Positions 29,734-50,545 of a DNA stretch of 64,000 nucleotides are shown here, piece after piece. Position numbers and translations under genes: made by a program. Positions within the stretch are counted from its first letter, which is position 1. Each line of letters begins with the position of its first letter. The DNA lies in the IMG/VR virus record IMGVR_UViG_3300033144_001700, positions 270 to 64,269 of that record; one strand, 5' to 3'. This DNA comes from a virus (taxonomy: Duplodnaviria; Caudoviricetes). The notes under the pieces were generated by a model. That model was not told the origin of the DNA and did not search any database. It saw nothing but the letters and a program-made list of their open reading frames with translations.

Positions 29734-32262
29734 CTAGAGACTCCAAGCCTCGGTGTCCAAAACTTTCTTCCACTGCGCCTTCGACCAACCGTTGAATCCG
29801 CCGTTCACTGGAATCTTCACCATGGCGCTAGCCATGTGCGGCGTGCCAAGCGATGACAATCCACCAGCACCGCTCCAGTCAGCTACCGACAACGTTCCTT
29901 GCCGATCGATCATCCAGAAGATGCGCTCCCACATCGCTGAGACCGCATCGACGCCTAGCATCGGTGTCAATTCTGCACTGATCGCCTGACCGTTCGCCAC
30001 CATGCTCTTCAGCATATCGACGTGAAATGGCTGCAACGTATCGGCTCCGACTCTCTCGGCCATCGACAGCATCTTGTGGTTGCCGAATCCAACGTGTGTC
30101 GGGTTGACCGGAAAGGCTAGGCCGTGGTCGATCAACGTGAACTCTTTCTTCGTGCCGTTCCACAAAGCGTTGCCCATGTGCCTGTCGGTGTTGCCGATGA
30201 TGCTATCGAACAAGGCGTTGTTAGTTAGTTCACGCTCGAAAACCTCATTGAACGCTTTACGCTTCGCCGATTCGGAGCCTCGACTGTACGCGTCCTTCCA
30301 GGCCTCGACACCTTCTTTGAACTGCTGCACCACCGACTCGCCCAGGTCGTCTCCAACCTTGTAGCCGTTGGCTCTAGCGTTGCTACTAAACCTCAACAGT
30401 TCGTCATCGATCTGATTTGTGACGTGGCGGATCACAGTGTCTTCAGGCACTTGGACTTTGACTCCACCTTGACTCGCATCGTCCATCATCTGCGCGATCC
30501 GCTGTGCCGCTTTCTCGCGCGGCAACTCTTCACCGACCGGTATACTTCCTCGTCTCACCGCGTCAGTCGGCTGGCCGAATCTCGGCTTGATGATGATCTT
30601 TGTTCCGTCCACAAGCTCTGCCGTGTAAACGTCGCTGACCGATTGGCCAGGTTTGAACGGCTTGATTGACCCTTCCTTGATCTCCATCGTCTGGTACTTT
30701 GAGCGGCTTGGCGTGCCTGACTGACCGGCCTTAGGTTTCGGTTTGGTGGTTGGCTTCGGGTTGGCTCTCGCTTTGATCTCTGACAGCTTACGTCGGTTGG
30801 CCGCAACCTTGATTTCTCGCTCTATGATTTGCCTTGCCTTGATCTCAGCGCGCTGCCTCACCCATCGTGCTCGGCCATCCGCCTTTAGGTTTTCCCACAT
30901 CCGCCGTCGAGCCGCTAGCTGCACGTTCTTATTGAACGCATCAGGCACCGGCATACCTTCGATATGCCAGTTCTGTTTCTCTTGAATCCGCAACCGACGC
31001 CAGAACTCCAAACGCCGATCTTGTGCAGCTAAAGGATAGAAATCGTCCGGCATATAGTTCTCGATATCAATGCCTTTCAGTTTCTTGTTGCGCTCTAGAA
31101 TCTTAGCCTGCCGTTTCTCCCAAATTTTGAGACGCAACTCCGGTTTCGCGTTAGGTAGAAAGTCATCCGGCATCTGCTTAACCGATGGCGACTTTTTGCT
31201 GCGCGGCTTCGCGCGTGCTCTCGGCTTCGCGCGGCGCGCTGGCTTCTTGTACCGCTTGTACGTCTTCGGTCGAACGACCTTCCGCTTGACGCTAAGGACT
31301 TTCTGTCCTTGAAGGAACGGCACGTCCCCTATCTGGTTGGCTTTCGGATCGATCGGAAACGGCTTCTGTCGTGGCAACCAGTTGCGCGTGTCGGCTGCGA
31401 TATCACACCGGCACCTTGGATGATCTGGTGGCCACATCGAACCGCTGCTGAAAGCCTCAGACATCGGCACCCATCCCTGAGCCTCATTGTCAGCACAGCC
31501 GACGTGAACGCCTGTGCCAGCAGTCAGCCAGCGCCGCCCTAAGATCCCGTTGTTGCGCATCGTAGTGTCGCTGACTTTACCGTACACGCGCGCCGTCTCT
31601 GTCCTTGCGATCGTCGTGGCGCGCGAGACCGTCATTCCCGCTTCGTTCATGCGCAGTCGGCGTGCCAGCGTCCCCATATCCAAAGGCGACGCTGGATTGG
31701 CGGCTTTGACCACTTGGTCAGCGATCAATTTCGGGAACTCGATCCCAACTGCTTTCTTCATCGCGCGCTCAGCCCCACGCATCAACCCAGGGTAGTACGT
31801 GTTGAACGTCTCGACGTTGGACAACCAGGCGTAACCCTTTGCGGGATCAACGATCTTCGTGACGTAGCCTAGCGCCGCGTGCGTCATCTCTGTCGCATCG
31901 GCTCCGGCTCTAGCCTGAAACTCTGCCCACGTCTTCGGCATCTTCAGGCTGGCCACGCGCCGCTCGAACACGACTTGCAGTTGGTCGCGCACCGTCTCCT
32001 TGGTCGCGCCTTTCTTCGACCACAGTTGACGTGCTGTTTCGATCTGCGTACGCGGTGATCCCATCCGCTTCAGCGCTCGGTGCAGATGCGGATTCATTAT
32101 CTCAAACGCCTCAGTCTCCGCGACCTGTCGGCGCACGTAACCTTCGGCGAAGAACTCTGGCCCTGCTACCGCCTTGTACATCTCGGACAGCATCTTGTGG
32201 ATCGCAAACCACCGCCGCCCTTTTTCGGTGTCAAGAAGTGATAAGGTCTTCGACGGAGCCAT
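29734..32262 (-). CDS. MuF/SPP1 gp7-type minor head protein fused to a C-terminal HipA/PI3-4K-like kinase domain
   Basis: RATTIARTET, C..N...PPDHPRCRC (MuF); IIKP, PREKAA, DSIIGNTDRHMGN, LIDHGLAF (kinase); GGAGG RBS at the 32262 start. Confidence 0.85.
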   Translation of the reverse strand: MAPSKTLSLLDTEKGRRWFAIHKMLSEMYKAVAGPEFFAEGYVRRQVAETEAFEIMNPHLHRALKRMGSPRTQIETARQLWSKKGATKETVRDQLQVVFERRVASLKMPKTWAEFQARAGADATEMTHAALGYVTKIVDPAKGYAWLSNVETFNTYYPGLMRGAERAMKKAVGIEFPKLIADQVVKAANPASPLDMGTLARRLRMNEAGMTVSRATTIARTETARVYGKVSDTTMRNNGILGRRWLTAGTGVHVGCADNEAQGWVPMSEAFSSGSMWPPDHPRCRCDIAADTRNWLPRQKPFPIDPKANQIGDVPFLQGQKVLSVKRKVVRPKTYKRYKKPARRAKPRARAKPRSKKSPSVKQMPDDFLPNAKPELRLKIWEKRQAKILERNKKLKGIDIENYMPDDFYPLAAQDRRLEFWRRLRIQEKQNWHIEGMPVPDAFNKNVQLAARRRMWENLKADGRARWVRQRAEIKARQIIEREIKVAANRRKLSEIKARANPKPTTKPKPKAGQSGTPSRSKYQTMEIKEGSIKPFKPGQSVSDVYTAELVDGTKIIIKPRFGQPTDAVRRGSIPVGEELPREKAAQRIAQMMDDASQGGVKVQVPEDTVIRHVTNQIDDELLRFSSNARANGYKVGDDLGESVVQQFKEGVEAWKDAYSRGSESAKRKAFNEVFERELTNNALFDSIIGNTDRHMGNALWNGTKKEFTLIDHGLAFPVNPTHVGFGNHKMLSMAERVGADTLQPFHVDMLKSMVANGQAISAELTPMLGVDAVSAMWERIFWMIDRQGTLSVADWSGAGGLSSLGTPHMASAMVKIPVNGGFNGWSKAQWKKVLDTEAWSL

Positions 32263-33967
32263 TTGCCTCCCCGGTGAAGTCTTCGATAAATCCTTCGACG
32301 CGCTCCAACTGACCTCTAACCGACGCCAACAAATCACGACCTTCCCGATCGCTAGCGTTGATCTGGAACGGCCCGTATCCGAACGCTGCTGTCAGTGCAG
32401 AACTTGCAGCGTCTTGCGGTATCTCACCCGACACACTCGTCAGGTACTCAGCCAACGTGATGTCGGCTCCGGCTGTGTCAGTGAACTCGTCTCGCTTCTC
32501 TAGGCCGATCCGTACCCGTCCTTCGTTGAGCGAGATCATGTTGATCTTCACCAGGTCGATCGCGATCTCCGCATCGTCACGTTCCTCGGTGATGTCCAGC
32601 GTCTCTAGATCGACACGGTACGGGAACTCTTCGAGACCTTCAGCACCGGTCGAAACCAATGCGCCTTCCGCACTTGCCACCGTCTCCGGCGACGCCGACG
32701 CCTCGGCTGTTCCCAAGGCGCGCACGTATTCCTCAGCGATGAAACGCGTCAGCCTGTCCTCGAACATCGCCTGCGCACGATCGACCACACCATCCTTGTA
32801 CGACCTGTTGATAGCTGTAGTAGCACTACCACCTAACGGCCCACGCCTGATCAATCCTACGCGGTCTGGTGGCATCCTGTGCGCCAAGAGAATCTTGTCA
32901 TCCAAGAACTCCATCAACTTGCCGAACTGCATATCGTTCTGGATCGCACCCATCCGCACGACCGTGATCTTGGCATCGCCATCGATCGGCAGAATCAAGT
33001 TCCGATGCGGATCGGAATGATTCTCGCGGAGTGACTGTGCGAACTGATCAGTGAACCGATCGGCTGCGCCAGCGTCCATCCCTGCCACCATGATCAGGTA
33101 GCGTGGCTCGCGGTTGTTCTCGAAGAATAGGATGTTGTGATCTCGTGCAGCGATCGACATCGTGATGTGACCCAACGCCGACACGTAGTTCGGGATGCCA
33201 TACTTGGTTGACCGGCGTGTCGGCTTGCGGAAGATCAAAATCTCGTTGGCCCATTTCAGCATCTCGCTAGTGTCGTTGCTGATCGGGTTGCCACTACTCG
33301 CCCTGATCTTGCCGGTCTCACTGTCGCCGTCAGTACCCCATTTCTGAAACCAAACGCGCTTCCCATCCCTGACCTGAACGAACTTCTTGCCGCTCCTGTG
33401 CGCTCGCAGCGTGTGGCCAGGTACGTGGTACAGGTGCGTCACCGCACCAGCGACATCGCGCCCGATCTCGAACGCGCCCCATCCTGTCACCTCATGGTCG
33501 CCGTCCACCGCCGTCAACTGTTCCAGCATCGTCTCTTCAACTGCCAGTCCGTAGAACCATCGCCGGATCGCCTCGCGCTCTTCTTCGTTGTCGGCGTCGT
33601 CGTCGCCTTTGATGACCGGGACGATCTTCGGCCCGTCTCCAACGATGTCAGTCGTCTTCTGTTCGAGCGCGGCGCTGTGGACTGGATGCGACTCAGCCAG
33701 CAACGTCAGTTGCTCCAAAGGGAAGGGCGGCTTCTTGATCGAGAAGCCGTAGTCGCTCGAATCCGAGAACGGGTCTTCCTCTAGCTGCTTACTGTCGTCT
33801 GGCAGCTTGAGGATTTCTTTACTGCCGCCGAAGCCAATGACCTTCGCGAAGAACTGCTGACCATCCTTGAAGCCAGCAGACTTCTTCATCTCGTCAGTGA
33901 CAAGGCTGTCCGGCGCTGGCTCGATCGTCATCTGCCTTTTGTTGTTCTTGGACTTCTTACGCGCCAT
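32231..33967 (-). CDS. Portal protein
   Basis: LYHVPGHTLR, EILIFR..YGIP, FFENNREP, DMQF...ILLAHRMPP, NEGR motifs; synteny. Confidence 0.9.
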   Translation of the reverse strand: MARKKSKNNKRQMTIEPAPDSLVTDEMKKSAGFKDGQQFFAKVIGFGGSKEILKLPDDSKQLEEDPFSDSSDYGFSIKKPPFPLEQLTLLAESHPVHSAALEQKTTDIVGDGPKIVPVIKGDDDADNEEEREAIRRWFYGLAVEETMLEQLTAVDGDHEVTGWGAFEIGRDVAGAVTHLYHVPGHTLRAHRSGKKFVQVRDGKRVWFQKWGTDGDSETGKIRASSGNPISNDTSEMLKWANEILIFRKPTRRSTKYGIPNYVSALGHITMSIAARDHNILFFENNREPRYLIMVAGMDAGAADRFTDQFAQSLRENHSDPHRNLILPIDGDAKITVVRMGAIQNDMQFGKLMEFLDDKILLAHRMPPDRVGLIRRGPLGGSATTAINRSYKDGVVDRAQAMFEDRLTRFIAEEYVRALGTAEASASPETVASAEGALVSTGAEGLEEFPYRVDLETLDITEERDDAEIAIDLVKINMISLNEGRVRIGLEKRDEFTDTAGADITLAEYLTSVSGEIPQDAASSALTAAFGYGPFQINASDREGRDLLASVRGQLERVEGFIEDFTGEANGSVEDLITS

Positions 33968-36271
33968 TTAACACTCGCTCCATCCACACGTCGATGACGT
34001 GCATTTCAAACAGCCCTCTTGGTACACGACCATTGCGCCGCACCGTGAGCACAGATCGCCGCTCTCCCTCTTAGTTTCGCCAGTGGTGTTGTCGATGAAC
34101 TTCATCCGTAACCACTGCGCCAGGTAATCGATGATCGACGTACACTTTCTGATCGCCTTGCTCTCGGTGAAGCCGGACGGATCGAACCGTGTGCCTTCCC
34201 ACTTAACGAGCAACGATTCCAGTGGCGTGCCGTACTGCAACGCGATCGATGTCGTCACGGCCCAGGCGTCGAGTAGGCCGCTGATCGTCTCACCTTCCTT
34301 AGCGATTTTGATGAAGATTTCCCCAGGTGAGCCTTCATCGTACAGCCCAACCGTGATGTATCCGTCGAGACCGTTGATGGCAAACTTGTGCGTCAATGCG
34401 TGGCGCTCTTCCGACAATCTCTTGCGACCGTGGACGTGCTCAGGGTGGTCGCCGCTGTGTACGCCTAGCTGAAGTGTGGCGGCTGGCTGAGCGGCGGCTG
34501 TGTGGCTTAGCACTTGGTTGTCGCGCGAACCGTCGCGGTACATCGTCACGCCTTTCAACGATCGCTGGATCATCGCCAGTTTGAACATCATTTCAATCTC
34601 AGCGACCACCGCATCAGCAGGAAGGTTGATCGTCTTACTGATCGCGCTGTCAACGTGACCTTGCCACGCCTGTTGATGATCAAGGTGCCATCGTGGTTGT
34701 ATCTCCATCGCCGTCGCGAATAGCTCGCGCACTTCCTCTGGCACTTCCTCGATCTTGCCCAATGGCTCGCCTGCCCTAAGCCGAGTGAACAAATCTTCTT
34801 CAGTGATCCGCGCGCCTCGCGCCCTGACCTCGTTATAGAGATCACGGTTAACCTCTTCGAGTACCACGCCCTCGGCAGTACGTCGCTCGTGGTGCATCGA
34901 AAACCACGGCTCGATACCACCTGACACTCCGGCGATGATCGATGTCGTGCCGGTCGGTGCCACAGTCCGCCGCCATGCGTTGCGGTACTTCGGCCCTTGG
35001 CCTTCTTCCCACGCTCCGTACGGCCCTAGTGCTTTACCCAACTGCAACGACTCTCGATCGGTCGCGATCTCCAACGCCTCTGCCAACCGCTCGGACATCT
35101 CCACGCCTTCATCGCTGGCGTACGGGATGCTCATCGCGATCAGGGCGTCGTGCAATCCCATCACACCAACACCGACGCGCCGCGTCTCTTCGTTCATCTT
35201 CTTCTGTTCCGGAACCGGGAAGCTGTTCTCGGTGACGACACGATCAAGGTAACGTACAGCGGTCTCCACATCTCGATCGAACGACTTCCATCCGAACAAG
35301 TTCGTCAGCGGTTCGTCAGCACCAACGTACGCCAAGAGATTGAGATGCCCCAGGTTGCACGACTCCCACGGCAAGAGCGGCTGTTCGCCACAAGGATTCG
35401 TTGCCTCGATCTCACCGTAGACTTCGATCAACGGATTGTCCTCGTTGACTCTCGTCAGGTTGACGACGCCAGGGTCACCGGTTCGGTGGACTCCCTCGGC
35501 TATCATCCGCAGAATCCGGCGTGCCGACTTCTGGCCCACCATCGCGCCCTTGTGATCGATCACCGCGAACTCGGTGTCCTCTTCAACGCACTTCCAAAAG
35601 CCGTCAGTCGTGCCGACCGAGATGTTGAAGTCGGAGATGCTGTCGGGATCGTCGTTCTTGCAAGTGATGAACTCTTCGATGTCGGGATGATCGAACCGGA
35701 GCACCGCCATGTTCGCGCCCTGCCGGACTCCGTTCTGTGCGACCATCCGGCTGTTCTGGTTCATCGTCTGCAACACGGACACCGGCCCACACGCGTGACC
35801 GTGGACGCCGCCGATCGGCTGGCCCTTCGCCCTCAGCTTTGACAGTGACACTCCGGTGCCACCGCCCCACTGAAGCGTACGCATCTGTGCAGAACCGCAC
35901 GCGATGATCGAGTCGAGCGAATCGTCCAGGCCTAGCACAAAGCACGCACTGAGATTCCCGCGCAGTCCCGCGTTGAACATCGTCGGACTGTTCGGGAAGA
36001 ACCGGTGCGATGCGATCAGTTCTCGGAACTCCGGCACTCCGAAGCTGATCCGATCCAAGAACTGGTTCTCCGACTCGTGCATCTCCGCGCAGTGCTCGCA
36101 CACCTTGTGGTTATCGAACGGCCCGTCACCTTTCGCGCCGCCAGGGTACGTCCCACAGACTTTGCACTTGCTGTTCTCGTCTTCCCACTGGTGTTGATGT
36201 AGGTACCTCATGCACAAGATCGTCTGCGCGTTTTCTGTGAACGATTGCGGCTTCACAACTCCTGTTGTCAT
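33968..36271 (-). CDS. nrdJ: Class II (adenosylcobalamin-dependent) ribonucleotide reductase with C-terminal TSCPD-like domain
   Basis: PNSPTMFNAG, LSACFV, GGGTG, TNPCGEQPL..ESCNLG, APTGT, SKTIN, KGVTMYRDGSR; C-terminal PGEIFI...CSRC...C; no NrdB seen. Confidence 0.92.
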   Translation of the reverse strand: MTTGVVKPQSFTENAQTILCMRYLHQHQWEDENSKCKVCGTYPGGAKGDGPFDNHKVCEHCAEMHESENQFLDRISFGVPEFRELIASHRFFPNSPTMFNAGLRGNLSACFVLGLDDSLDSIIACGSAQMRTLQWGGGTGVSLSKLRAKGQPIGGVHGHACGPVSVLQTMNQNSRMVAQNGVRQGANMAVLRFDHPDIEEFITCKNDDPDSISDFNISVGTTDGFWKCVEEDTEFAVIDHKGAMVGQKSARRILRMIAEGVHRTGDPGVVNLTRVNEDNPLIEVYGEIEATNPCGEQPLLPWESCNLGHLNLLAYVGADEPLTNLFGWKSFDRDVETAVRYLDRVVTENSFPVPEQKKMNEETRRVGVGVMGLHDALIAMSIPYASDEGVEMSERLAEALEIATDRESLQLGKALGPYGAWEEGQGPKYRNAWRRTVAPTGTTSIIAGVSGGIEPWFSMHHERRTAEGVVLEEVNRDLYNEVRARGARITEEDLFTRLRAGEPLGKIEEVPEEVRELFATAMEIQPRWHLDHQQAWQGHVDSAISKTINLPADAVVAEIEMMFKLAMIQRSLKGVTMYRDGSRDNQVLSHTAAAQPAATLQLGVHSGDHPEHVHGRKRLSEERHALTHKFAINGLDGYITVGLYDEGSPGEIFIKIAKEGETISGLLDAWAVTTSIALQYGTPLESLLVKWEGTRFDPSGFTESKAIRKCTSIIDYLAQWLRMKFIDNTTGETKRESGDLCSRCGAMVVYQEGCLKCTSSTCGWSEC

Positions 36272-36287
36272 GTACGATGTTTCCTTC

Positions 36288-37805
36288 CTAGAATCTCGCG
36301 ACCTTGCCGATGCGGGTGACAGGTCGTGACTGTTTCTTATTCGATGTTTTGTGTCCCTTGTAAACCAGCCAAGCGATCGCCATCGCGCACACTCCGTCAG
36401 GCGGATGGCCGCTCGGCAAGTACAGGTCTTCGTGTTTACACAGCCGGTGCTCGGCTTGCAACGTCGTGATGTACGGACTCGCGATCTCGCCATGCTCGAC
36501 GGCCAACGCGTACGGCGTGTACAAATCCTTCTTAGGCAACGACACGTTCGCTGTCACTGCCGCAACATCGTCTTCCAAATAATCAGAGACCACGTTACCG
36601 ACACCTTGTGCATCATGGCCAGCCTTGCCGCCCCACACGCGCACGCGCTGTTTGAATCGGTTGATCATCTTCGGCCAGGACTCGCGCCTGATTCGCTCAA
36701 ACGCAACCAACCGTGCCGGTGTCACGTCTACCCGGATCGTCACGATCACAGTGTAGTCTTTCTCCTTGGCCCAATCCGCGCCGGTAACGTAGATGCCCTC
36801 TTCGCGTGGCCGCTCGAACGCGTAGCGTCGGCCTAGCGTGTCCTCGATCTTGCCTAGCTTGGTCTGAAACATCGTCTTGACCATCGTGGTGTCGAAGACG
36901 CGGCCCTCGGCTGACGGCTCTTGCAGTTCGTACTCGACTTCCCACATCGCTGCGGGAACGTCTTTCCTCTTACGGTCGATCTGATCCTGCGTCAACCAGC
37001 CGCCATTATCAACGTGCGACTCGCGGTAACACCACTCCATGACCGGCACGCCGCTCTTCCTAAACCGGTCACGTAACGCAGTGACCGTACCGTCTGGATA
37101 TTGATGCGTACTTCCGGCTCGCGTTATCCCTCGCGTGATGCCAGGTGCGTCCATCGTGACACCTGTGGCGGCGTCGTAGATTTTGATATCCATCTCGTCT
37201 ACTTCGTCCATGATCATCACTGGCTTGTGAGAACCACGCGCGGACTTGCTCGATGCCGTGAGCGCCGTGATCGAAGTGTTCCAAATCGTCTTAGCTTTCC
37301 AACCGGACGGCTCGTCTGGCATGATCGTTCGGATCGGGTTGCGGTAAGTTTCCGGCCCGTCTTCGCCCTCAACCTCGACCGGATTAACCCACACTTCAGT
37401 CTCGATCTCGTGGACTCGTCTCGACTGTTCGCCGGAGCCGCCCAAGATGTTGACGCTGGCTCCGTCCATCGCCTTCAGCAATCCAACCGCTGCGAGCAAC
37501 GTAGTCTTGCCACCAAAACCACGCGACGCGATCAACATGATCGTCGGTTCTATGTCTTGATAGCACGCCCAAGCTGCGTCCAACGGCGCAACGTGACCAG
37601 GACATACGCTCTTCTCGGCGAGCTTGATTGTGAAGATCAACTCCATCCAAGTCTTCAGTTGCTGCTTATCTACCGGAGACGTGTACTCGACGTACTCGTT
37701 TTTGCTTGCGCGGAACCACAGTCGGTCTAGCATCTCCAACGTCTCGGCCTTTGTGTAAACAGGCCACTCGCCAGGTTTGGGTCTAACTCTTGATGCTGTG
37801 GTCAC
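36288..37805 (-). CDS. Terminase large subunit
   Basis: SRGFGGKT Walker A, VMIMDEVD Walker B, GADWAKEKDYTVI nuclease motif, PDGVCAMA. Confidence 0.88.
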   Translation of the reverse strand: MTTASRVRPKPGEWPVYTKAETLEMLDRLWFRASKNEYVEYTSPVDKQQLKTWMELIFTIKLAEKSVCPGHVAPLDAAWACYQDIEPTIMLIASRGFGGKTTLLAAVGLLKAMDGASVNILGGSGEQSRRVHEIETEVWVNPVEVEGEDGPETYRNPIRTIMPDEPSGWKAKTIWNTSITALTASSKSARGSHKPVMIMDEVDEMDIKIYDAATGVTMDAPGITRGITRAGSTHQYPDGTVTALRDRFRKSGVPVMEWCYRESHVDNGGWLTQDQIDRKRKDVPAAMWEVEYELQEPSAEGRVFDTTMVKTMFQTKLGKIEDTLGRRYAFERPREEGIYVTGADWAKEKDYTVIVTIRVDVTPARLVAFERIRRESWPKMINRFKQRVRVWGGKAGHDAQGVGNVVSDYLEDDVAAVTANVSLPKKDLYTPYALAVEHGEIASPYITTLQAEHRLCKHEDLYLPSGHPPDGVCAMAIAWLVYKGHKTSNKKQSRPVTRIGKVARF

Positions 37806-38419: not shown

Positions 38420-39536
38420 TGGCTAGCTCGTCTGCAAACGCGCCGGATCGGGTCGCTCCACCGTTGCGGGATACGTGCTCTTCAAGACTTGTCTTGCTCT
38501 TAGCACCGCCGACGTGTAGCTCCCGGTAGAACATGAACCACAGAGCCTCGACCAACGCTGGCTCGGTCGGCTTGACCGCCTTCATCTTGATCCGCAAGTC
38601 CCACGCCAGGGCGATCAGCGCCGCCGCCTTAGGCAGCGTCAGCTTGTCGTCAGCGATGATCTTGTCGCGTACCGCCACTGTCACAGCATCGACCATCGCA
38701 GACGCGTCTCTGTGCGCCCTGAACGTCTTGTGTATCGCTTTCAACCCGTCCTCTACCTTGCCAGCACGAGCCGACTTAATGAACGCTGTCGCGAACTCGT
38801 CTAACCCACCAGGCCACAGCCGATAGAACTTGGTGTCGTTGATCGATCCTTTCAGCAGCGACAGTTGTTCGAGCATCATCAGCGCGTCGCGCAGTGATCC
38901 ATTCGCTCGCTTAGCGATCAGCTTCAACGGATCGCCTGTTCCTACCAGCAAGTTCTCGGCCTCGACCACCGTCGCCAACCTGTCCTCGATATCCTCGACG
39001 CGGATCGCGCCGTACTGGAACACAAGGCACCGGCTCTTGATCGTCTCCGGCACTTGGTCGAACTCGGTCGTTACGAGAATATACAGCACGTTTCTGGCTG
39101 GCTCTTCCAGTTGCTTCAGTAGCGCAGAGAACGCTGACGACGACATCGCGTGACACTCGTCAACGATAAAGATTCTGTAATCTCCGGAGTGTGACAACCG
39201 ACTCAACGATTGAAGATCTCGGATGCGATCGACGTGACCGGTTGTCGCGCCGTCCACTTCGAGCACAGCCGAATTGGTTCCGTTATAAATCGACTTGCAC
39301 TGATGGCACTCAGTACACGGATCGACTTGATCGCCTTCGCAGTTGAGCGCCGCCGCGACCACGCGCGCCAGGGATGTCTTGCCGCTGCCTCGCGTACCGA
39401 CCAGCAGCAGCGCAGTCGGCAGTTCTATCTCGTCAGCATGATAGCGATTGAGCATCGCCGTGATGACCTTTGTTACGTGGCTCTGTCCGTGAAAATCCGC
39501 GAGCGAGCGCGGCCTATACTTCAACGCGAACGGCAT
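38412..39536 (-). CDS. dnaX: DNA polymerase III clamp-loader gamma/tau-like ATPase
   Basis: ALKYRP, GTRGSGKT, LNC...PCTECHQC, IVDECH, LLKQLEEP, TIKSRC, GSLRDA. Confidence 0.93.
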   Translation of the reverse strand: MPFALKYRPRSLADFHGQSHVTKVITAMLNRYHADEIELPTALLLVGTRGSGKTSLARVVAAALNCEGDQVDPCTECHQCKSIYNGTNSAVLEVDGATTGHVDRIRDLQSLSRLSHSGDYRIFIVDECHAMSSSAFSALLKQLEEPARNVLYILVTTEFDQVPETIKSRCLVFQYGAIRVEDIEDRLATVVEAENLLVGTGDPLKLIAKRANGSLRDALMMLEQLSLLKGSINDTKFYRLWPGGLDEFATAFIKSARAGKVEDGLKAIHKTFRAHRDASAMVDAVTVAVRDKIIADDKLTLPKAAALIALAWDLRIKMKAVKPTEPALVEALWFMFYRELHVGGAKSKTSLEEHVSRNGGATRSGAFADELASG

Positions 39537-42393
39537 CTTTCGTCCTTTCTGTTGCGCACTTCGGGCAGATGTCGTCACCAGCCTCGCCGATGATGTCAGT
39601 CAACACCGGCTTGTCACACCGCTCGCAATAAATCGTGAACGCATCTTCGGTGGCCTCCACTTCGCTGAAGACCTTGTTCAACACTGCGGGATATCGCATC
39701 ACGTCTGACCGCTTGCCGATGATGGCGTTGGCCACGTCGTAAGGACTGTACCGAGTGCGCACAATCATGTTCAGCTTTACCGCTGTGCCGCTGACCGACA
39801 CCCACAAATCACTCGCCGCATCGTGGATGTTTATCTCTTCTTTCTGCGGGCCTGTTCTGTACTCAGTCGTGCGGACTATCATCGGATGGTAGTCCTTGGC
39901 GTTTATCTTCTTGACCGCTTCTCGCATCACCGACTCTGGCTGATCGACTTCAAGCTGCCACCACATCCCCGCACCGTATTTCTTCAACGACTTCGGGAAC
40001 GACCAAACCGATTCGATCTTCAAGCCGTGCGGTTCGAGACACGGATTCAGTAGACCGGGCAAATCGTTGATGTCGATGTCGTCAACGAATCCGAACTCGA
40101 CCAACTGCAATCCGGCGAAGCCTGTAAGGTTCGACTTGATCTTGTCGGTGATGTAGAACTGCGAGTCTATCGCTGGTGTCAGGCCAGCTTGGAACGCGGC
40201 ACGCCTGATCGCGAGCGTCCAATGCTTCGTGTCCACGTACCGTCGATACGAATCAACGGCACAGACCAGCGTCACGCGCGTGTTCACCGACCTGTGGTCG
40301 ATCGTCTTGATCTCTGACAGCTTAACCGGCTCGTCTTCCCTCAGCGCCAGTTCGGACATCATGGCCAAATGATCCTCGTCGCACGCGCCGCACGCTGTGC
40401 AACCGATCGTACACGCTCCGAACTTCTCAATGAAACCTGCACCGTAAACAGGGATCGGCGTACCGTCCGACTCTTTGCCAACCGGCTCGTCTCGCGCACG
40501 CTTCTGAATTTGGCGCCAGTGCCTGAGTAAATACGCCTTCGTGATCAGTGGATCGATCACGTCCCAGGCGAACACTTCGTCCTCATCTTTCGGTCGGTAG
40601 TAATCTCGGTAAGTCCGGTTGTGCGCCGCCAGGTGGCGCTCGATGATCTCGCCGATCCGCTTCGACATCGCGCCGTACGTTCCTATGTTGGCTTCAATCG
40701 TCGCATCGAGCATCGCTTCGGCTGCAACGTCGTCACACATCTCGGCCATCTGAACGTAGTTGCCTAGCCCGCTCTTAGTCTCGTCACCCATCTGTGTGCC
40801 GAATCCCAACGCCTGTATCGCGGCCATCGTGTCGCTCAGATTCCCGTCCATCCGCCGACACTCAGTCCACTGCAACGGCGTGCCGCCCTGCACCATCAAC
40901 GGCTTCCAACTGAAGCGCACCTTGATGTTGCTGTCAACGCTCTTGCGTAGAGCGTCGATCTTCCTAGCAGTCTCGACCATCTCCTTGTAATCTTCTTCAG
41001 TCTCGCCAGGTAGCGACGCCACCATGTAAACCTTCAGCGATCGATAGCCAGCAGCCAGCGCGTTGCTGACCGACTTCAAGATGTCGTCTTCGTTGATTCC
41101 CTTGCTGACGATCTCGCGTAGTTTCTGGCTCGATCCCTCGGCGGCGATCGTTGCAGTCTTCTTCTGTGCGTGAACTGCGACAAACCCGAAGACCGGATCG
41201 GCACCGAAGACATCGATCCTCAACGACGGCATCGATAGCTCTGGCGTGACCTCTTCTAAAATGCGCTTCATCAAAGACTTCTTGCGGCTGAACGTGCCGA
41301 ACTCCAACATCAACGGCGACACGTCAACGCACCCGGTGTTGCGCTGAGCTAGTTTGAAGTCGGCGAGCGTCTTGTCTTCCGACCGCTCACGGTACGGAGC
41401 CTCACGGAAGGTAGCCGCACAAAAGTTACAGTGGTAGGAGCAACCACGCGCCGCCTGAATCGTTCCCATCCCCATCCTTGGATCGTGAAAGATAACCGGT
41501 GGGTTGGTTGTGCTGGTCGCTTCCGTCAGGTTGCGGACGATCCTCTTGGTCGCCACCTTCGGCACGTCCCGCGTCATCTCCCATCCGGTAACGCGCCAGT
41601 TGCCTTTGACTTTCTTGTGCGAATACTTGACGAACTTCGGACACCACAAGAACGGGTATCGATTGACCAGAGCTTCTAACGCATCGTCTTTGTCGGTGGC
41701 GGTATCGAACGCTCCGGCTTCCTTCAGCTTGATGATGTCTCCCATCACCACGTTCCAGCCAGGGTTGTCCTGTGGCGCGCGTCTCGTCTCGCGTGGTGCC
41801 TTGCTGTCCTGTATCCACGACGCTCGCGCCTGTTGCTCCTTGGTCTCGTCTTCAGCCTCGCCACACCACACCAAATCGACAGTCGGCGAGACCAGCGACG
41901 GGTTGGCGAACGCGTGACCGCCCAAGATTATGAGCGGGTGCTTGTGCGTCCGCTCTGACCAGCGCACCGGTATGCCGGACATCCTCAACATCTTGATCTG
42001 GTTGACCCAGTACGGCATATAGTTGAGCGACATCGCCAACACGTCGTACTCGCCAAGCGCGTGCCGCGTCTCCAGGCCGAACATCGGGATGCCGTGCTTC
42101 TCCATCAGGCCGACCTCTTTGTGGCTGGTCGGGTAGTACACACGCTCGTGAATCCGCTCTACGCTGTCGTACTCGTTAGCGTGCTGATACAGCAAAGGGA
42201 TCGTGACGTTGCCTACCGACTGCACGTAATCGAAGCTCGCCATTATCGCGACGCGCAACCGCGCAGCATCCCACTGCTCCGGCGTCCAGCGATGCGCGTT
42301 CGGCTCGTCTCCGTAGTAGGCTTCCGGTGTATCGAACTTGTGCTGGTTGTCGGCGAGGAACTTGTTTACTTGTGTCGGTGTTTTGAGATTCAT
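39514..42393 (-). CDS. B12-binding-type radical SAM protein (TIGR03960-like) fused to DUF2344-like domain and Zn ribbon
   Basis: RGCSYHCNFC (CX3CX2C), GIPMFGLETRHALGEYD, LIILGGHAFANP, SMPSLRID, CTIGCTACGAC, RYVDTKHW..AIRRAAFQAGL, CERC...CPKC. Confidence 0.82.
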   Translation of the reverse strand: MNLKTPTQVNKFLADNQHKFDTPEAYYGDEPNAHRWTPEQWDAARLRVAIMASFDYVQSVGNVTIPLLYQHANEYDSVERIHERVYYPTSHKEVGLMEKHGIPMFGLETRHALGEYDVLAMSLNYMPYWVNQIKMLRMSGIPVRWSERTHKHPLIILGGHAFANPSLVSPTVDLVWCGEAEDETKEQQARASWIQDSKAPRETRRAPQDNPGWNVVMGDIIKLKEAGAFDTATDKDDALEALVNRYPFLWCPKFVKYSHKKVKGNWRVTGWEMTRDVPKVATKRIVRNLTEATSTTNPPVIFHDPRMGMGTIQAARGCSYHCNFCAATFREAPYRERSEDKTLADFKLAQRNTGCVDVSPLMLEFGTFSRKKSLMKRILEEVTPELSMPSLRIDVFGADPVFGFVAVHAQKKTATIAAEGSSQKLREIVSKGINEDDILKSVSNALAAGYRSLKVYMVASLPGETEEDYKEMVETARKIDALRKSVDSNIKVRFSWKPLMVQGGTPLQWTECRRMDGNLSDTMAAIQALGFGTQMGDETKSGLGNYVQMAEMCDDVAAEAMLDATIEANIGTYGAMSKRIGEIIERHLAAHNRTYRDYYRPKDEDEVFAWDVIDPLITKAYLLRHWRQIQKRARDEPVGKESDGTPIPVYGAGFIEKFGACTIGCTACGACDEDHLAMMSELALREDEPVKLSEIKTIDHRSVNTRVTLVCAVDSYRRYVDTKHWTLAIRRAAFQAGLTPAIDSQFYITDKIKSNLTGFAGLQLVEFGFVDDIDINDLPGLLNPCLEPHGLKIESVWSFPKSLKKYGAGMWWQLEVDQPESVMREAVKKINAKDYHPMIVRTTEYRTGPQKEEINIHDAASDLWVSVSGTAVKLNMIVRTRYSPYDVANAIIGKRSDVMRYPAVLNKVFSEVEATEDAFTIYCERCDKPVLTDIIGEAGDDICPKCATERTKDAVRVEV

Positions 42394-42400
42394 CTGTACT

Positions 42401-42429
42401 GGTATCGTAACTCAGCGACTCTTTGTCAA
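42401..42429 (-). promoter_or_regulatory. Putative class-II promoter TTGACA-N17-GATACC (leaderless radical SAM mRNA)
   Basis: ATG 7 nt after the -10 box with no RBS; -35 overlaps the sigma gene stop. Confidence 0.6.
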
Positions 42430-43088
42430 GCCAGTTCGTTAGCGCTGATGCGGCCCTGCAACCGTGAACGCAAGCCGTCAAGCGCCTCGTCGCGCAACGT
42501 CAGTACAGCCGTAACGCTGATGCCTCGGTTCCTCTCCTTCGCCAAAATGTTCCCGATCTGCGCCGCCGACATTCCGTGCGTGAGTAGCAGTATCACCGCA
42601 CACTGCCTAGGCGGGAGCGACGCCAAAGCTGCCACCAATTCACCGGTCACTTTTGGTGGCAACGAATCGTTGACTGCACTGTAAGTGTCGTCAGATGGAA
42701 GCTCGGCGGGATTTATATCCTCGATCGGCGTGGTGTGAACGTCTCGCGTTCGACTGTTATCTGACAGTCTTCGGATCGTATCGAACATCGCGCCACGTAT
42801 CCTGAGAAAGCTGAAGGAGCGAAACGTATAGCCGCTGTCCTTGTCGTATTTTTCCAGAGCTTGCAGCAGCCCGATCACGCCGACAGCAATCAAGTCTTCT
42901 TCGTCCACCAGGTGTGGGATCGGGTTCTCAATCTTCTTGCGCGCGATCGATCTAACGTAACCGATGTGAGCTTCGATGACCCTTGTTCGATTGGCTGAAG
43001 TGCTACGCTTGATGTACGCCAGCACTGGCGATCCTTTGCGCTCTCGCGCTGTACGCTTTTTCTTGACCGGCTTTTTCTTACTGACCAT
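42426..43088 (-). CDS. RNA polymerase sigma factor, FliA/WhiG-like
   Basis: EDLIAVGVIGLLQALEKYD...FRSFSFLRIRGAMFDTIR (region 2); LASLPPRQ...AQIGNIL (region 4). Confidence 0.85.
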   Translation of the reverse strand: MVSKKKPVKKKRTARERKGSPVLAYIKRSTSANRTRVIEAHIGYVRSIARKKIENPIPHLVDEEDLIAVGVIGLLQALEKYDKDSGYTFRSFSFLRIRGAMFDTIRRLSDNSRTRDVHTTPIEDINPAELPSDDTYSAVNDSLPPKVTGELVAALASLPPRQCAVILLLTHGMSAAQIGNILAKERNRGISVTAVLTLRDEALDGLRSRLQGRISANELA

Positions 43089-43650
43089 CCGGCACCAACA
43101 AAGCAAGTTTGTGCCGATCAATTTCCTCCACGAACCGCGCGACCTGAGCTTGGTCATAAGCGATCGCGTGTCGCATCTCGTAGTTGTGGCGCACCGCCCC
43201 AGGTTGATAGACGCCGATCACGTAGCACCCAACATCGTGTCGGAAGACAAAGCCGTGATCCTTCGACAGCTTCTCTATGCCACCGATGAACTTGCTCGCC
43301 TCAGCACCGACAGTGATCACCAGCACTGGCGCGATGATGTGGATGTAATGCCGGAGGTTCCAACTAAAACACGCCCTGTATTCTTCGTTGGTTGGCTTCC
43401 GATCCAGAGTGTGACACATCATGCTGTTCGTGAGGTACGTGTCTTCAGGCTTCAGTCCTGCACCCGTCAACCACTTCCTCAGCAGTAATCCATCCGGCCC
43501 GAACCACGGCGTGTTTTCCAAGTCTTCTTCCGGCCCAGGCTGACGGCCTACCACCATCACGTCGGCTGGCGTCGGGCCTTTACCGATCACCGGCTGACAC
43601 GCCGAGTCCCGCGCCGGACATTTGTGGCAACCCTTCGCCACCGCATCCAT
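43078..43650 (-). CDS. Uracil-DNA glycosylase family 4-like (start uncertain)
   Basis: CHKC, VMVVGRQPGPEED, YLTNSMMC...KPT..E..AC, YQPG. Confidence 0.85.
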   Translation of the reverse strand: MDAVAKGCHKCPARDSACQPVIGKGPTPADVMVVGRQPGPEEDLENTPWFGPDGLLLRKWLTGAGLKPEDTYLTNSMMCHTLDRKPTNEEYRACFSWNLRHYIHIIAPVLVITVGAEASKFIGGIEKLSKDHGFVFRHDVGCYVIGVYQPGAVRHNYEMRHAIAYDQAQVARFVEEIDRHKLALLVPDGQ

Positions 43651-43684: not shown

Positions 43685-44323
43685 TCAGACCACAGTGGCT
43701 GTAGCTGCGTCGCCATGCTTCTCGATCCTGTACGCCTTGTCAGCGTGCTCCAAGAATTCGTCCTGATGCGTAACCAGCACGACCTGAATTCCCAAGTCGC
43801 GTGACATCTTCTGAAGCAACTGCGCCATCGCTGGCACATACTCCGCGCTAAGGTGGGCGAACGGTTCGTCCAAGAACACAACCTTTTCTACGTCGAGCAA
43901 TCGGACGAACACCATCTGAAGGATCGAGCACGTCACCGCAACCACACCGCCACCGCGAGCGTCTAGCAAGTCGGTCTCTGTGCCGTTCTCGTTGATCAAC
44001 CTGAAGTCCACGTTCACGTTGTTGCCGCGAACCTTCGTGTTGATTTTGAATTGAATGGCTTCATCGAAGACCGCCAGCAAGCCAGCACTCACCACGCGCT
44101 CTATCCCTGCGGCGAACTCGGTCTGCACTTGCTCGGTCAGCAAGTGGAACAACGCTAAGACCTTATCCATCAACACGATCTCAGCGTCGTGCTCCTTGAT
44201 TTCTTTTTCAAATTGTCGCAGGTCACGGTTGATCTGCCTCGCCGTGCCTAGGTCGCGATCGAACCGACCTTTACGGATCAGCATCATCGATGCCAGTCGT
44301 TCGCCTGTAAGCCTCTCACTCAT
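43685..44323 (-). CDS. SbcC/Rad50-like ABC ATPase, C-terminal half
   Basis: Coiled coil, DARGGG signature-like motif, VFLDEPF Walker B/D-loop, LVTH switch. Confidence 0.82.
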   Translation of the reverse strand: MSERLTGERLASMMLIRKGRFDRDLGTARQINRDLRQFEKEIKEHDAEIVLMDKVLALFHLLTEQVQTEFAAGIERVVSAGLLAVFDEAIQFKINTKVRGNNVNVDFRLINENGTETDLLDARGGGVVAVTCSILQMVFVRLLDVEKVVFLDEPFAHLSAEYVPAMAQLLQKMSRDLGIQVVLVTHQDEFLEHADKAYRIEKHGDAATATVV

Positions 44324-46550: not shown

Positions 46551-47526
46551 CGAACAAAATCTGCCGTGCTTCAGCCCGAACCGATTTACTCTTGGTCAAC
46601 TTGTCGGCGGCGTCCGCCAACTCTTCGACAGTGACGGCCTTGACCTCAGCACTGCGTAACTGCTCAGTGAACTCCCTGATCGATTCATCTCTGAATTTCT
46701 CCATCTCTGCACTCTCCAGGCGGAACACTTCAGCAGCCGGTGCCGCCTGTAGTTCTTCGTAACGCGCAGTCACCGTCTTGTCGGTGACTTCGATCACTGC
46801 GACCTGTGGCGTGCGCTCAACATCGTTAGCCGTCAGCGATCCACGGGACAGCGCGCCAGGGTTCGAGACCACCGTGTGGCGACGCTTGCCGCTGCCGCGA
46901 CTGTACTGTACGACTCTATCCCAAGTATCCTCTCTGATCGATCTCAGCGGCTCTGGTACGTGGATGTGTCCATAGCAAATCACCCTTGCCCTTAGCTCGT
47001 CAAGCTCGTCAGGATGGATTGTATCGTAGTACGGGTTTGACTGCCAAGCGATCGGCGCGTGCGTGATCAGCACATCGCATCCGCGTGCCGCCTCTAGGAT
47101 CATCGCCGCGTCGATCTTGTAGTCCCACTCGACACCGAACATCTTGATCCCGTTGGCGTCGAACATTCCGTTCTCGCGTGTCAAGATCTCGACGTTCGGC
47201 ATATTCGCCAGCACGCCCAATGGTTGCCTGTCCATCGACTCGATCCGACCAGCGGACAAATCGTGGTTGCCGGGTACGATCAAAGAAACGACTTGGTAGT
47301 TGTCGCTCAGCAGTTGGCACCATCGGTTGACCAACGCGTGACTCACGCGAGTGGCCTGTGGGTTGTGGAATAAATCGCCAGTGAACACGACGTAGTTCGC
47401 GTCTTCCGCGTTCGCCAGGTCGAACGCCTCTTGCAGCTTCGCGAATATCTGGTCGTTGTAAAGCCGCGTCCGATTCCGTGGCGGCTTGTCGGACGTGTGC
47501 GGATCGTTGATCTGTACGAACTTCAA
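46540..47526 (-). CDS. SbcD/Mre11-like metallophosphoesterase nuclease
   Basis: NDPH, GDLFH, PGNHD, GHIH, NPGAL motifs. Confidence 0.9.
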   Translation of the reverse strand: MKFVQINDPHTSDKPPRNRTRLYNDQIFAKLQEAFDLANAEDANYVVFTGDLFHNPQATRVSHALVNRWCQLLSDNYQVVSLIVPGNHDLSAGRIESMDRQPLGVLANMPNVEILTRENGMFDANGIKMFGVEWDYKIDAAMILEAARGCDVLITHAPIAWQSNPYYDTIHPDELDELRARVICYGHIHVPEPLRSIREDTWDRVVQYSRGSGKRRHTVVSNPGALSRGSLTANDVERTPQVAVIEVTDKTVTARYEELQAAPAAEVFRLESAEMEKFRDESIREFTEQLRSAEVKAVTVEELADAADKLTKSKSVRAEARQILFDVR

Positions 47527-48470
47527 ATCCCGCTCACCTTCTGGCTGCACACCGGACAGATCTTGACCTTGGCTAGCTCGTGCTTCAACTGGCGCAGTTC
47601 GTCGCGCTTAACGCGACGCTTCGCTATCAGTCCCACGATCGTTCCGGTCTTGGTTTGTAGCTGAGTGTAGCTGGCGATCAGCCGATCTCTGTCCTGAGAC
47701 GCGCTGAGAAGCGCGTCAGCCACATCCTGCGCTGTGTCTACGGTGTTCTTCAACGCCTTCCACCGCTCAACGTCCACGATCTGCCTAGCGCGTCTCGTAC
47801 GAATCGCAAGCTGATCCGCCGAACAAGCGATCCCTAATGCCTCTAACTCGCCGTACTGCTTGATCTTGTCTCCGGCTTCGGCCAGGTTGCGTGCGTCGTC
47901 TTCGAGATACGCGTACGATTCCAACTCCAGTCTCGCTGCATCGCGATCGTTCTCGCGGACAGTGAGCAATCGCTTAGCCTGCTGCTGTCGCTTGCGCGCG
48001 GCTTGCGTTGCGAGGAAGAGAATGTTCACACCGCTTAGCTCGCCAAGCATCCGCGCTCGCGTGCTGGCTGGCACGCCCAACAGAAACGGCATCTCGAACT
48101 GACCGGCGAAGTTCGGCGTCATCGACTCGCTGCCAATTTTGATCTCGCCGATCTTCAACCGTGCCGCGATCTCTGGCGGCACCGTCCGGCCTGTCTTGTT
48201 GAAAGTGTCTTTACCCAGGACGTACGTCGAACTGCCTTCGCGCTTGTTCCACGCGACCGTCGTCTTGTCCGCCTCGATCACCACAGTTGCGTCCTTCGCC
48301 CCGTGTGAAACGAAGTCGTTGCCGCTGCGGTTGATCGCCAGGGCGCGAACCGCTCGGATGATCGCAGACTTCCCAACATCGGACTCGCCAACGATCACGG
48401 TGAACGGCTCTAACTCCAACGTCACATCGCGCAACGATTGGAAGTTGAGGATACTGATGCGATCAATCAC
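47523..48470 (-). CDS. SbcC/Rad50-like ATPase, N-terminal half ending in a CPVC zinc hook
   Basis: ISILNFQS, GESDVGKS Walker A, Q-loop AGQFE, coiled coil, terminal CPVC. Confidence 0.88.
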   Translation of the reverse strand: MIDRISILNFQSLRDVTLELEPFTVIVGESDVGKSAIIRAVRALAINRSGNDFVSHGAKDATVVIEADKTTVAWNKREGSSTYVLGKDTFNKTGRTVPPEIAARLKIGEIKIGSESMTPNFAGQFEMPFLLGVPASTRARMLGELSGVNILFLATQAARKRQQQAKRLLTVRENDRDAARLELESYAYLEDDARNLAEAGDKIKQYGELEALGIACSADQLAIRTRRARQIVDVERWKALKNTVDTAQDVADALLSASQDRDRLIASYTQLQTKTGTIVGLIAKRRVKRDELRQLKHELAKVKICPVCSQKVSGI

Positions 48471-48475
48471 GCAAC

Positions 48476-48504
48476 GGTATAGCAAACGGCCCTTGCTTTC
48501 GCAA
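48476..48504 (-). promoter_or_regulatory. Putative class-II promoter TTGCGA-N17-TATACC (leaderless)
   Basis: GTG start 5 nt after the -10 box, no RBS. Confidence 0.55.
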
Positions 48505-48535
48505 GAGCCGTCGCGGTAAGGGTGGAGCCTAAAAT

Positions 48536-49108
48536 TCAGTCGTATGATACATCGATCCATGATGCGTCGCGCATCCCGCGCGGGAGATCGCGAACGTCCT
48601 CGTCCTCGTCCTCGAACTCGTCGTCCAGCGCCTCGATAGCGGCGGCGGTCGAGTCGAGCGCCTTGTTCACGTTGGCCTTCTGCTCTTCAGTGAGAGGCCG
48701 GACGCGCCAGTCGCCGGACTGAACGATGTCGTTGTAGTCGATCGACCTCGGCGAATTCCAGAGGTAGATTTCTGCCCGTACGATCTCGTCGCTGTCTTCG
48801 GGCCTGATCTCGACGTTGCGCCTGATGTACATCGAGTCCTTCGGTGCGTCTGGATTGAAACCTTCCAGCCTGTCCAGATCGCGTAGTCCGTTGGCGTCCA
48901 CTTCGTAAAGCTCGCCGTGGACGATACCCTCTTGGCTCGTGACCACTGCCGGGAACGCGCCGAGAGAGACCATCAAGCCGCCAACGAATCTGTAGTCGCC
49001 CACCAGGTGAGCGCCGTTGCGGGTCAGGATGTCGTGGTTGCCGAAGCCTTCCATCAGCGAACCGTAAACGAATACGAGAGTTGCGTTTGTTGCGTTTGCC
49101 TGTGTCAT
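48536..49108 (-). CDS. Gamma-glutamylcyclotransferase (AIG2-like) family protein
   Basis: VFVYGSLM, FPAV, VHGELYEV, LDRLEG, SGDW. Confidence 0.88.
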   Translation of the reverse strand: MTQANATNATLVFVYGSLMEGFGNHDILTRNGAHLVGDYRFVGGLMVSLGAFPAVVTSQEGIVHGELYEVDANGLRDLDRLEGFNPDAPKDSMYIRRNVEIRPEDSDEIVRAEIYLWNSPRSIDYNDIVQSGDWRVRPLTEEQKANVNKALDSTAAAIEALDDEFEDEDEDVRDLPRGMRDASWIDVSYD

Positions 49109-50079: not shown

Positions 50080-50545
50080 TGACCCAGGCGCTCCAGGTTG
50101 ATCGCATCTTGAAGAGGTCACCATCTGCGCCGCGATGTTCCCGCAGTAGCGAACTGGCGCTGCGCTTTCTCGTCGCACATGGATGGTTGGCACTGGCCAG
50201 AGCATCACTGGTGTGAGGATGGCGACCTCTTCGAGATGGTCGAGAGACTGACGAATCTGGCAAGGGCGGTCTGCATACTTTGGCTCCGCCTCTCTTGCAG
50301 CTATTCAAACCAGCGCTTGCGCGCCTGAGACAGCGGCTTCTCGTGATCTGCGAGTAGCAATATCTTGGTGGCAGGGAGCTACCCTCGCCAGATTCGTTGG
50401 TCTCTCGACCGGGTAGTGAAGGGGCCGTACTCTCTCCGTTGTACACGGCGCGAAACTTGCGGCCCCTTCACTGGTGGCTGAAGTTTTCGGTGGTGCATCG
50501 GTCTGGCTTTGTCGGCCTCGCCTCGTCCTCTTACTTGCTTCAACC
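50080..50545 (-). ncRNA. Candidate large structured non-coding RNA/leader (three back-to-back long hairpins)
   Basis: Stems 50105-50125/50218-50238, 50238-50269/50379-50410 and 50415-50427/50460-50472; own promoter upstream; no credible ORF; family unknown. Confidence 0.65.

Follow-up and report, generated by a model that had tools for sequence, protein, structure and literature searches.

A gene on the minus strand of an uncultivated tailed-phage genome encodes what we read as an active stand-alone radical S-adenosylmethionine (SAM) enzyme directed at nucleic acid, probably at RNA. By sequence comparison the protein is a variant of a known bacterial family without assigned chemistry, TIGR03960/TIGR03936, and belongs to a phage-specific sister branch of it. 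We give this joint reading a probability of about one half. The window analyzed is a stretch of 64,000 nt that covers nearly all of a 64,269-base IMG/VR virus record (IMGVR_UViG_3300033144_001700, positions 270 to 64,269; estimated completeness 77%). The gene occupies window positions 39514..42393 and is a complete open reading frame (ORF) of 959 amino acids, here called P0001, a fusion of a radical SAM protein with a DUF2344-like domain. The first-pass annotation of this DNA had extended the intact ORF to position 42429, which adds 36 upstream nucleotides. Among the radical SAM families whose chemistry is still unassigned, TIGR03960/DUF2344 belongs to the larger ones, and a compact single-chain phage version with a confident structural model is a convenient entry point for biochemistry.

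Domain Architecture and Conserved Cysteines

The architecture of P0001 is that of the TIGR03960-type proteins: a PF19864 N-terminal domain, a radical SAM core, and then a C-terminal cysteine-rich motif. All parts are given below with their positions on the minus strand. The N-terminal domain (residues 1–250; 41644..42393) is Rossmann-like and resembles a B12-binding domain, as judged from its fold matches and from PF19864, which covers residues 67–201 (E = 3.6e-27, 95.1 bits against a cut-off of 29). Residues ~186–211 form a low-confidence insert that is missing from most homologs; it appears as a gap in the alignment, and the predicted local distance difference test (pLDDT) drops below 50 at residues 192–205. 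The radical SAM barrel with its helical extension spans residues 305–640 (40474..41481), and the Pfam model PF04055 matches residues 315–475 (39.6 bits, cut-off 29.5). The best NCBIfam family is TIGR03960 (E = 3.8e-64), positions 190–583 of which align with residues 244–633. The resemblance of the N-terminus to this family, suggested in the first-pass annotation, is borne out by the E-value and by the PF19864 match, but the score of 217.2 bits, obtained over two stretches, is below the curated cut-off of 462.3. The genome search with TIGR03960 gave 135.2 and 79.2 bits, none over the cut-off, and PHROGs contain no family for P0001.

The radical SAM cluster motif CX3CX2C is intact, as had been claimed, in the form CSYHCNFC (residues 318–325; 41419..41442). 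Its cysteines C318, C322, and C325 are invariant in a 12-row alignment of the clade and invariant or at least 90% conserved in an 85-row alignment. Between the core and the tail lies a four-cysteine motif, CTIGCTACGAC (C661, C665, C668, and C671; 40381..40413), which is likewise invariant in the smaller alignment and at least 90% conserved in the larger one. This motif is a candidate auxiliary [4Fe-4S] or metal site, and we infer an auxiliary cofactor there. The cluster had been described as an extra one; the motif is present, but it is not extra, because cellular family members have the same motif directly ahead of DUF2344. The proposed terminal zinc ribbon is recognizable from its sequence, CxxC-x16-CxxC, at residues 923–946 (CERC-x16-CPKC; 39556..39627). 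Of 65 phage-side rows, at least 44 match a rough regular expression for it; of 45 cell-side rows, none does. Judged by this pattern, the ribbon is specific to the phage branch.

An AlphaFold2 model of P0001 was built from the 85-row alignment. Its mean pLDDT is 92.7 and its predicted template modeling score (pTM) is 0.92, with disorder only at residues 192–205 and in the last six residues; a pTM this high means that the domains are placed against each other with confidence. In a Foldseek comparison of the full model with the PDB, the first two-thirds of the protein match MgmA, TsrM, CysS, TokK, OxsB, and MiaB (E from 4e-11 to 5e-7), and the tail matches TruA, PUS3, and PUS1. The best matches to the full model are class B radical SAM enzymes, namely MgmA (9ccb), TsrM (6wte), CysS (9n1d), TokK (7kdy), and OxsB (5ul3), with E from 4e-11 to 7e-7, which share with P0001 the order of a Rossmann-like N-terminal domain followed by a radical SAM barrel. 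However, identity to these enzymes is 10–14%, the query TM score is ~0.3 since only the first two-thirds align, and none of them has a four-cysteine site followed by a TruA-like domain. A sequence search of the PDB found no solved member of the family: the best match was the core of MgmA only, and the C-terminal profile gave chance-level matches to the ribbon. Among the viral structures of BFVD none has the same full architecture; the best matches there are other phage B12-like radical SAM proteins of 404–646 aa, with query TM scores of at most 0.28.

A Pseudouridine Synthase-Like Fold in the C-Terminal Domain

In the structural models, residues ~700–915 (39649..40296) form a divergent DUF2344 domain with the fold of the TruA pseudouridine synthases. 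That the C-terminus is DUF2344-like had been proposed from the sequence alone, and this is right as remote homology only, supported by profile comparison and by fold. HMMER with PF10105 and TIGR03936 gave no match to P0001 at E ≤ 1; the phage-type homolog P0054 reaches 22.1 bits with PF10105, the gathering score of which is 23.8 bits. When the C-termini of 12 phage-type proteins were compared by hhalign with the DUF2344 part of 10 cellular fusions, the profiles aligned over 165 columns (96.8%, E = 2.2e-10). The whole-length profile alignment of phage and cellular proteins also spans the DUF2344 domain.

A separate model of residues 690–959 has a pLDDT of 93.9. Its 11 best Foldseek matches in the PDB are all TruA, PUS3, or PUS1 (E = 1e-5 for 1vs3_A). 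In an exhaustive alignment of the tail to 48,161 chains, the eight best matches are all pseudouridine synthases, with Z-scores from 12.0 to 10.1; the best of them is TruA (Z = 12.0, rmsd 3.2 Å, 191 of 249 residues aligned). A TruA fold for the tail agrees with Pfam, which, according to PMC7955657, groups DUF2344 with the pseudouridine synthases. The likeness of P0001 to TruA (1vs3 and 2nqp), PUS1, and PUS3 consists in the same fold over residues ~704–937. Identity, by contrast, is 11–14%, and the family of P0001 has no conserved Asp in the presumed equivalent loop.

The loop 748–758 is where we presume the catalytic Asp of TruA would fall, the placement being by secondary-structure order and not by residue superposition. 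At position D750, 34 of 85 rows have Asp and 6 have Glu, and the 22 cellular-type rows have Pro. Because the Asp position is not conserved, pseudouridine-forming activity is unlikely, and the modeled tail resembles a domain for binding more than a working pseudouridine synthase. The only residue invariant across phage and cellular tails is R731, the Arg of RRA. It belongs to the cellular tail motif HLD...RRA...GFxPxP; in place of HLD and GFxPxP the phage branch has other residues, often (S/T)D for GFxPxP.

Phylogeny and Distribution

A word-index search returned 49 proteins, 11 of them of similar length and with 22–47% identity, from metagenomes only. With an exhaustive profile search, 19,644 cluster representatives matched at E ≤ 1e-3, of which 2,660 also passed E ≤ 1e-30. 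The family is spread over many bacterial phyla and an alga; a control search of genomes gave matches in Synechococcus, Deinococcus, and Thermotoga, among other taxa. In IMG/VR, 18 loci have a relative. In a FastTree phylogeny of 110 rows, 30 named cellular rows are split from 13 viral rows by a branch of length 0.9 with 100% support. A quick IQ-TREE analysis of 62 rows, from which the long branch L018 was left out and in which 20 of 67 unlabelled rows were kept, gave the same split between 30 cellular and 12 viral rows (SH-aLRT 100). Both trees are unrooted, and a clade here means one side of a branch. In neither tree is P0001 placed within the cellular TIGR03960 members; it groups with the IMG/VR copies. 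The question raised in the first-pass annotation, whether the gene nests among host orthologs as a recent capture, is thus answered in favor of a phage clade and against a recent capture, since the viral rows are separated from the 30 cellular homologs at 100% in two trees.

A tblastn search of 50,697 GenBank phage records gave seven weak partial matches, with at most 25.7% identity over more than one-fifth of the protein, and the full-length protein is found in no cultured phage among these records. Megablast of 10 kb against GenBank phages gave nothing, and the capsid and polymerase of the window have at most 31–35% identity to any GenBank phage. One narrow phage-type pattern, run against 185,579 bacterial and archaeal species genomes, found no relative, which is weak evidence that the phage branch is absent from cells. 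A literature search found no paper on the TIGR03960/DUF2344 radical SAM family. One candidate, a Campylobacter phage paper (PMC3322345), concerns other genes.

Compared with the bacterial TIGR03960 and TIGR03936/PF10105 (DUF2344) proteins, which occur in cells in both fused and split forms, P0001 has the same order of parts: PF19864, the CX3CX2C core, the four-cysteine motif, and a DUF2344-type domain. It differs in that it scores below the family cut-off, its PF10105 domain is undetected by HMMER, and it stands behind a long branch with 100% support. Further, its tail lacks GFxPxP and has the added terminal ribbon, and the gene lies in a phage replication block, whereas cellular members stand beside RNase E/G-rplU.

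Inteins at Conserved Motifs

Among the 150 best cluster representatives, at least 27 have been invaded by one to three inteins; they have lengths of 1,200–2,062 aa, and their matches are broken into two to four pieces. The junctions are of the usual form, ...HN followed by C, S, or T, and there are about ten sites in total (homologs P0051–P0180). Insertion points lie ahead of each of the cluster cysteines C318, C322, and C325. Others are found before the Ser of EGxSQ (~residue 422), inside the four-cysteine motif, at the cysteine of WCGEAEDE, and at several more points. Intein splicing, Hint, or LAGLIDADG/homing-endonuclease domains were detected in 10 of the 12 such long proteins scanned, and the copy in locus L002 (L002:10001-13882) also has intein-type domains; the copy of the window has no intein. 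In phages, the most frequent intein targets are usually polymerases, helicases, reductases, and terminases, and its intein load places the radical SAM enzyme among the most frequent targets. The location of inteins at conserved motifs suggests functional importance, as far as can be read from sequence. From the phage version, the parts that are probably indispensable can be named: both cysteine clusters, the single invariant tail arginine, and the motifs into which inteins insert.

Cellular Relatives and the Link to RNase E/G

In a second scan of genomes, at least 540 relatives from cells turned up. We examined 27 of 80 kept loci, with 59 of 108 neighboring ORFs run through Pfam. In 19 of the 27, one of the first three downstream ORFs is an RNase E/G gene, followed in seven loci by the gene for ribosomal protein L21; among the eight loci without an RNase E/G match are four from which no downstream ORF was submitted to Pfam. 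In seven loci an unfused radical SAM gene is directly followed by a separate DUF2344 gene. By this gene order the cellular family is linked to RNase E/G.

Proposed Function

The working model for P0001 is a radical SAM core combined with a nucleic-acid-binding module, as in MiaB/MtaB with their TRAM domain and in RlmN/Cfr; MiaB–RNA complexes and RlmN are among its fold matches. The homology is at the superfamily level only, however, and the appended domain of P0001 is TruA-like and not TRAM. In addition, MiaB has an N-terminal three-cysteine cluster, which P0001 lacks. RNA is favored as the substrate because the fold of the tail is that of RNA enzymes and because the cellular family is tied to RNase E/G.

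In the proposed mechanism, the TruA-like domain and the ribbon would hold the nucleic acid so that one of its nucleotides reaches the active site of the radical SAM core. The nucleic acid would most likely be a structured RNA such as tRNA, rRNA, or a transcript on which RNase E/G acts. Reductive cleavage of SAM would produce a 5'-deoxyadenosyl radical, which would abstract hydrogen from the base or the ribose. The four-cysteine site would hold an auxiliary cluster, and the N-terminal domain may hold cobalamin for methyl transfer, as in the class B enzymes. The phage could benefit through altered translation or through protection of RNA from host RNases. A more specific version, an undescribed radical and possibly cobalamin-dependent modification of RNA or DNA in which the TruA-fold domain serves as a base-flipping reader, is offered tentatively, with the odds against it. 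In that case the modification might, for instance, direct processing by RNase E/G, and the phage might copy it in order to protect or reprogram RNA during infection. With an RNA substrate, the enzyme would represent a new means by which phages act on host RNA or on their own, and solving the phage branch would also disclose the function of a large bacterial family that stands beside RNase E/G.

Several points weigh against this RNA-directed enzyme. The literature searched names no substrate for any family member, and a shared fold, here a modeled one, would be no proof of RNA binding. The 64-kb window contains no tRNA gene and matches no Rfam family. The link to RNase E/G belongs to the cellular branch, and the phage copy lies among DNA-replication genes. 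Since the phage tail has diverged from cellular DUF2344, with GFxPxP replaced and a ribbon added, the substrate may have changed. The best match of the core, MgmA, acts on methyl-coenzyme M reductase, which is a protein. Finally, the cobalamin part of the mechanism is uncertain. P0001 was first annotated as a cobalamin-type protein, and this stands at the level of fold, where class B enzymes are matched; but MiaB, which binds no cobalamin, is matched as well, and the B12-binding model PF02310 gives no match to P0001 at E ≤ 1. A viral homolog in locus L018 matches PF02310 at 1e-5. Thus the modeled N-terminal domain resembles a cobalamin-binding domain, and its fold suggests cobalamin use at that level only. 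The adenosylcobalamin-dependent ribonucleotide reductase NrdJ of the window (TIGR02504, 531.9 bits against a cut-off of 399.95) merely hints that B12 is available in the host.

Genomic Context and the Case for DNA

An unlikely alternative to an RNA-directed enzyme is modification of DNA, in which a base of phage or host DNA would be flipped out by the TruA-like domain and the ribbon, to receive a new mark from the radical SAM core during or after replication; such an activity would be a new modification route. This alternative draws on the position of the gene and on the altered tail. The gene lies among replication genes of the same orientation, which encode PolA, a Toprim-domain protein (a likely primase), RecA, SbcCD parts, a beta clamp, a clamp loader, and a ligase. 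Its end overlaps the clamp-loader gene by 23 nt (39514..39536), counted from the likely start, ATG 39536, which is preceded by AAGGA; the longest clamp-loader ORF would give an overlap of 65 nt instead. The overlap with dnaX reported in the first-pass annotation is therefore real, and it suggests translational coupling.

The same arrangement recurs in related phages. Among the 18 IMG/VR loci, a beta-clamp homolog lies upstream of the radical SAM gene in eight and a clamp-loader homolog follows it in eight, often with a small SMC-like ATPase, a gene resembling uracil-DNA glycosylase (UDG), or both in between. In a survey of 80 related IMG/VR loci that started from the clamp loader, the radical SAM gene was present in 22. 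In every one of these it precedes the clamp-loader gene in the same orientation, and the two are adjacent or up to ~4.6 kb apart. The weak resemblance of the ribbon to the Fpg zinc finger (E = 0.07–0.09; 0.093 with zf-FPG_IleRS) and the loss of the cellular DUF2344 motif from the phage branch also fit DNA as the target. However, the shared position may be synteny inherited within one phage lineage. Of the 65 loci in which the sequence extends at least 5 kb upstream, only 17 have the gene, which indicates an accessory gene of a sub-lineage and not a fixed part of the replisome. Moreover, the nearest folds of the tail are all RNA enzymes, and the family in cells is linked to RNase E/G.

Nucleotide metabolism, too, looks canonical. 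The window has genes for deoxynucleoside triphosphate (dNTP) supply, namely NrdJ, ThyX, and dCTP deaminase (DCD), with ThyX and NrdJ above the curated cut-offs. Of the neighbors listed in the first-pass annotation, NrdJ, ThyX, dCTP deaminase, and a family-4-like UDG were recovered, but a MazG-like enzyme and a HAD phosphatase were not among the scanned ORFs. The window has 84 candidate ORFs, of which 32 were scanned with Pfam, 47 with PHROGs, and 19 with NCBIfam. Among these scanned ORFs no hypermodification gene (pyrimidine hydroxymethylase, DNA kinase, or transferase) was found, such as might recall the clusters for thymidine hypermodification that Lee et al. reportedly described in 2018 for phages M6, ViI, and similar ones. 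Within 8 kb, no partner gene co-varies with the radical SAM gene beyond relatedness in the 65 related loci, a comparison made with crude ORF calling on loci that are related to one another. An ordinary dNTP-supply set, the lack of hypermodification genes, and the lack of a co-varying gene leave a joint pathway with UDG, DCD, ThyX, and NrdJ unsupported. Hence, of the earlier proposal that P0001 modifies nucleic acid, action on nucleic acid is plausible, but an unknown DNA base made together with these enzymes has no specific support.

Improbable Alternatives: Protein Substrates and Loss of Catalysis

Still less probable is a protein, peptide, or small-molecule substrate, with the TruA-like domain serving only as a scaffold or docking module. 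Here the nearest relatives of the core are the argument: the best match is MgmA (9ccb; E = 4.4e-11 by structure and 1.5e-7 by sequence), and RimO, which acts on ribosomal protein S12, is also matched, so that both provide precedents. The run of cellular loci into the gene for ribosomal protein L21 and the lack of a conserved catalytic Asp in the tail point the same way. But similarity of the core among radical SAM enzymes is a poor guide to the substrate, a full TruA-type fold with its invariant Arg has been kept across the phage and cellular branches, and no peptide or protein partner co-varies in the phages. It is highly improbable that P0001 keeps the radical SAM shape without catalysis and binds nucleic acid in a structural or regulatory role: one or two rows (P0156 and P0162) do not match the regular expression for CX3CX2C, but all seven cluster cysteines are present in P0001 and are invariant or nearly so across the 85 rows, and inteins sit exactly at the cluster cysteines, as is usual for catalytic sites.

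Structured Stretch and Upstream Region

A possible substrate for an RNA-directed P0001 had been seen in a structured RNA at 50.1–50.5 kb. The stretch itself (50100-50500, minus strand) is real, with a minimum free energy of -181.9 kcal/mol against -134.5 for shuffled sequences (z = -8.3), and the ORFs around it match no family. Nothing ties it to the enzyme, however: Rfam gave no match, not even at E ≤ 1, and blastn found nothing similar among the 18 related loci.

Upstream of the radical SAM gene, the sequence TTGACA-17-GATACC-7-ATG (42394..42429, minus strand) lacks a Shine-Dalgarno site and was noted on inspection as a putative promoter; AAGGAG-type sites are present ahead of several other genes of this phage. 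The first-pass annotation had given the gene its own leaderless promoter. The hexamers are there, but the putative -10 element, GATACC, matches at three of six positions and lacks the final T, and a promoter scan did not call this stretch. A search of sequencing runs listed none of RNA, and the DNA runs listed share only small portions of the sequence words. In five relatives (L013–L017) the start of the gene abuts or overlaps the upstream UDG-like gene. Its own promoter is therefore neither shown nor a conserved feature. The TTGACA hexamer overlaps the stop codon of a gene for a FliA/WhiG-like sigma factor (42426-43157, minus strand), which lies between the UDG-like and radical SAM genes; the related loci that were inspected have no sigma gene in this place.

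Other Features of the Phage Genome

Nearly all genes of the window are on the minus strand. Pfam and PHROGs scans identified structural genes for a tape measure protein, tail proteins, capsid, portal, and terminase. The NrdJ gene (33968-36493, minus strand) lies inside the packaging module, with the portal gene on one side and the terminase gene on the other. Taken as its longest ORF, NrdJ would share ~200 nt with the terminase ORF, which makes a start further downstream probable. The portal gene also adjoins a gene for an 867-aa protein (29734-32337, minus strand), which has weak head-morphogenesis or minor-head matches at residues ~222–485 and a PI3/PI4-kinase or HipA-like kinase segment at residues ~686–762.

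In the replication and recombination block, a SbcC/Rad50-type ATPase is apparently split into two genes (47523-48560 and 43685-44323, both on the minus strand). The larger part, of 345 aa, is N-terminal and carries the Walker A side (AAA_23), and the smaller one, of 212 aa, matches only the C-terminal end of the Rad50/SMC head. Between them lie the genes for SbcD, a PD-(D/E)XK nuclease, and the beta clamp. The smaller part is found again in the same place in L003, L006, L009, and L012. The same block includes a gene for a gamma-glutamyl cyclotransferase-like (GGACT/AIG2) protein (48536-49108, minus strand).

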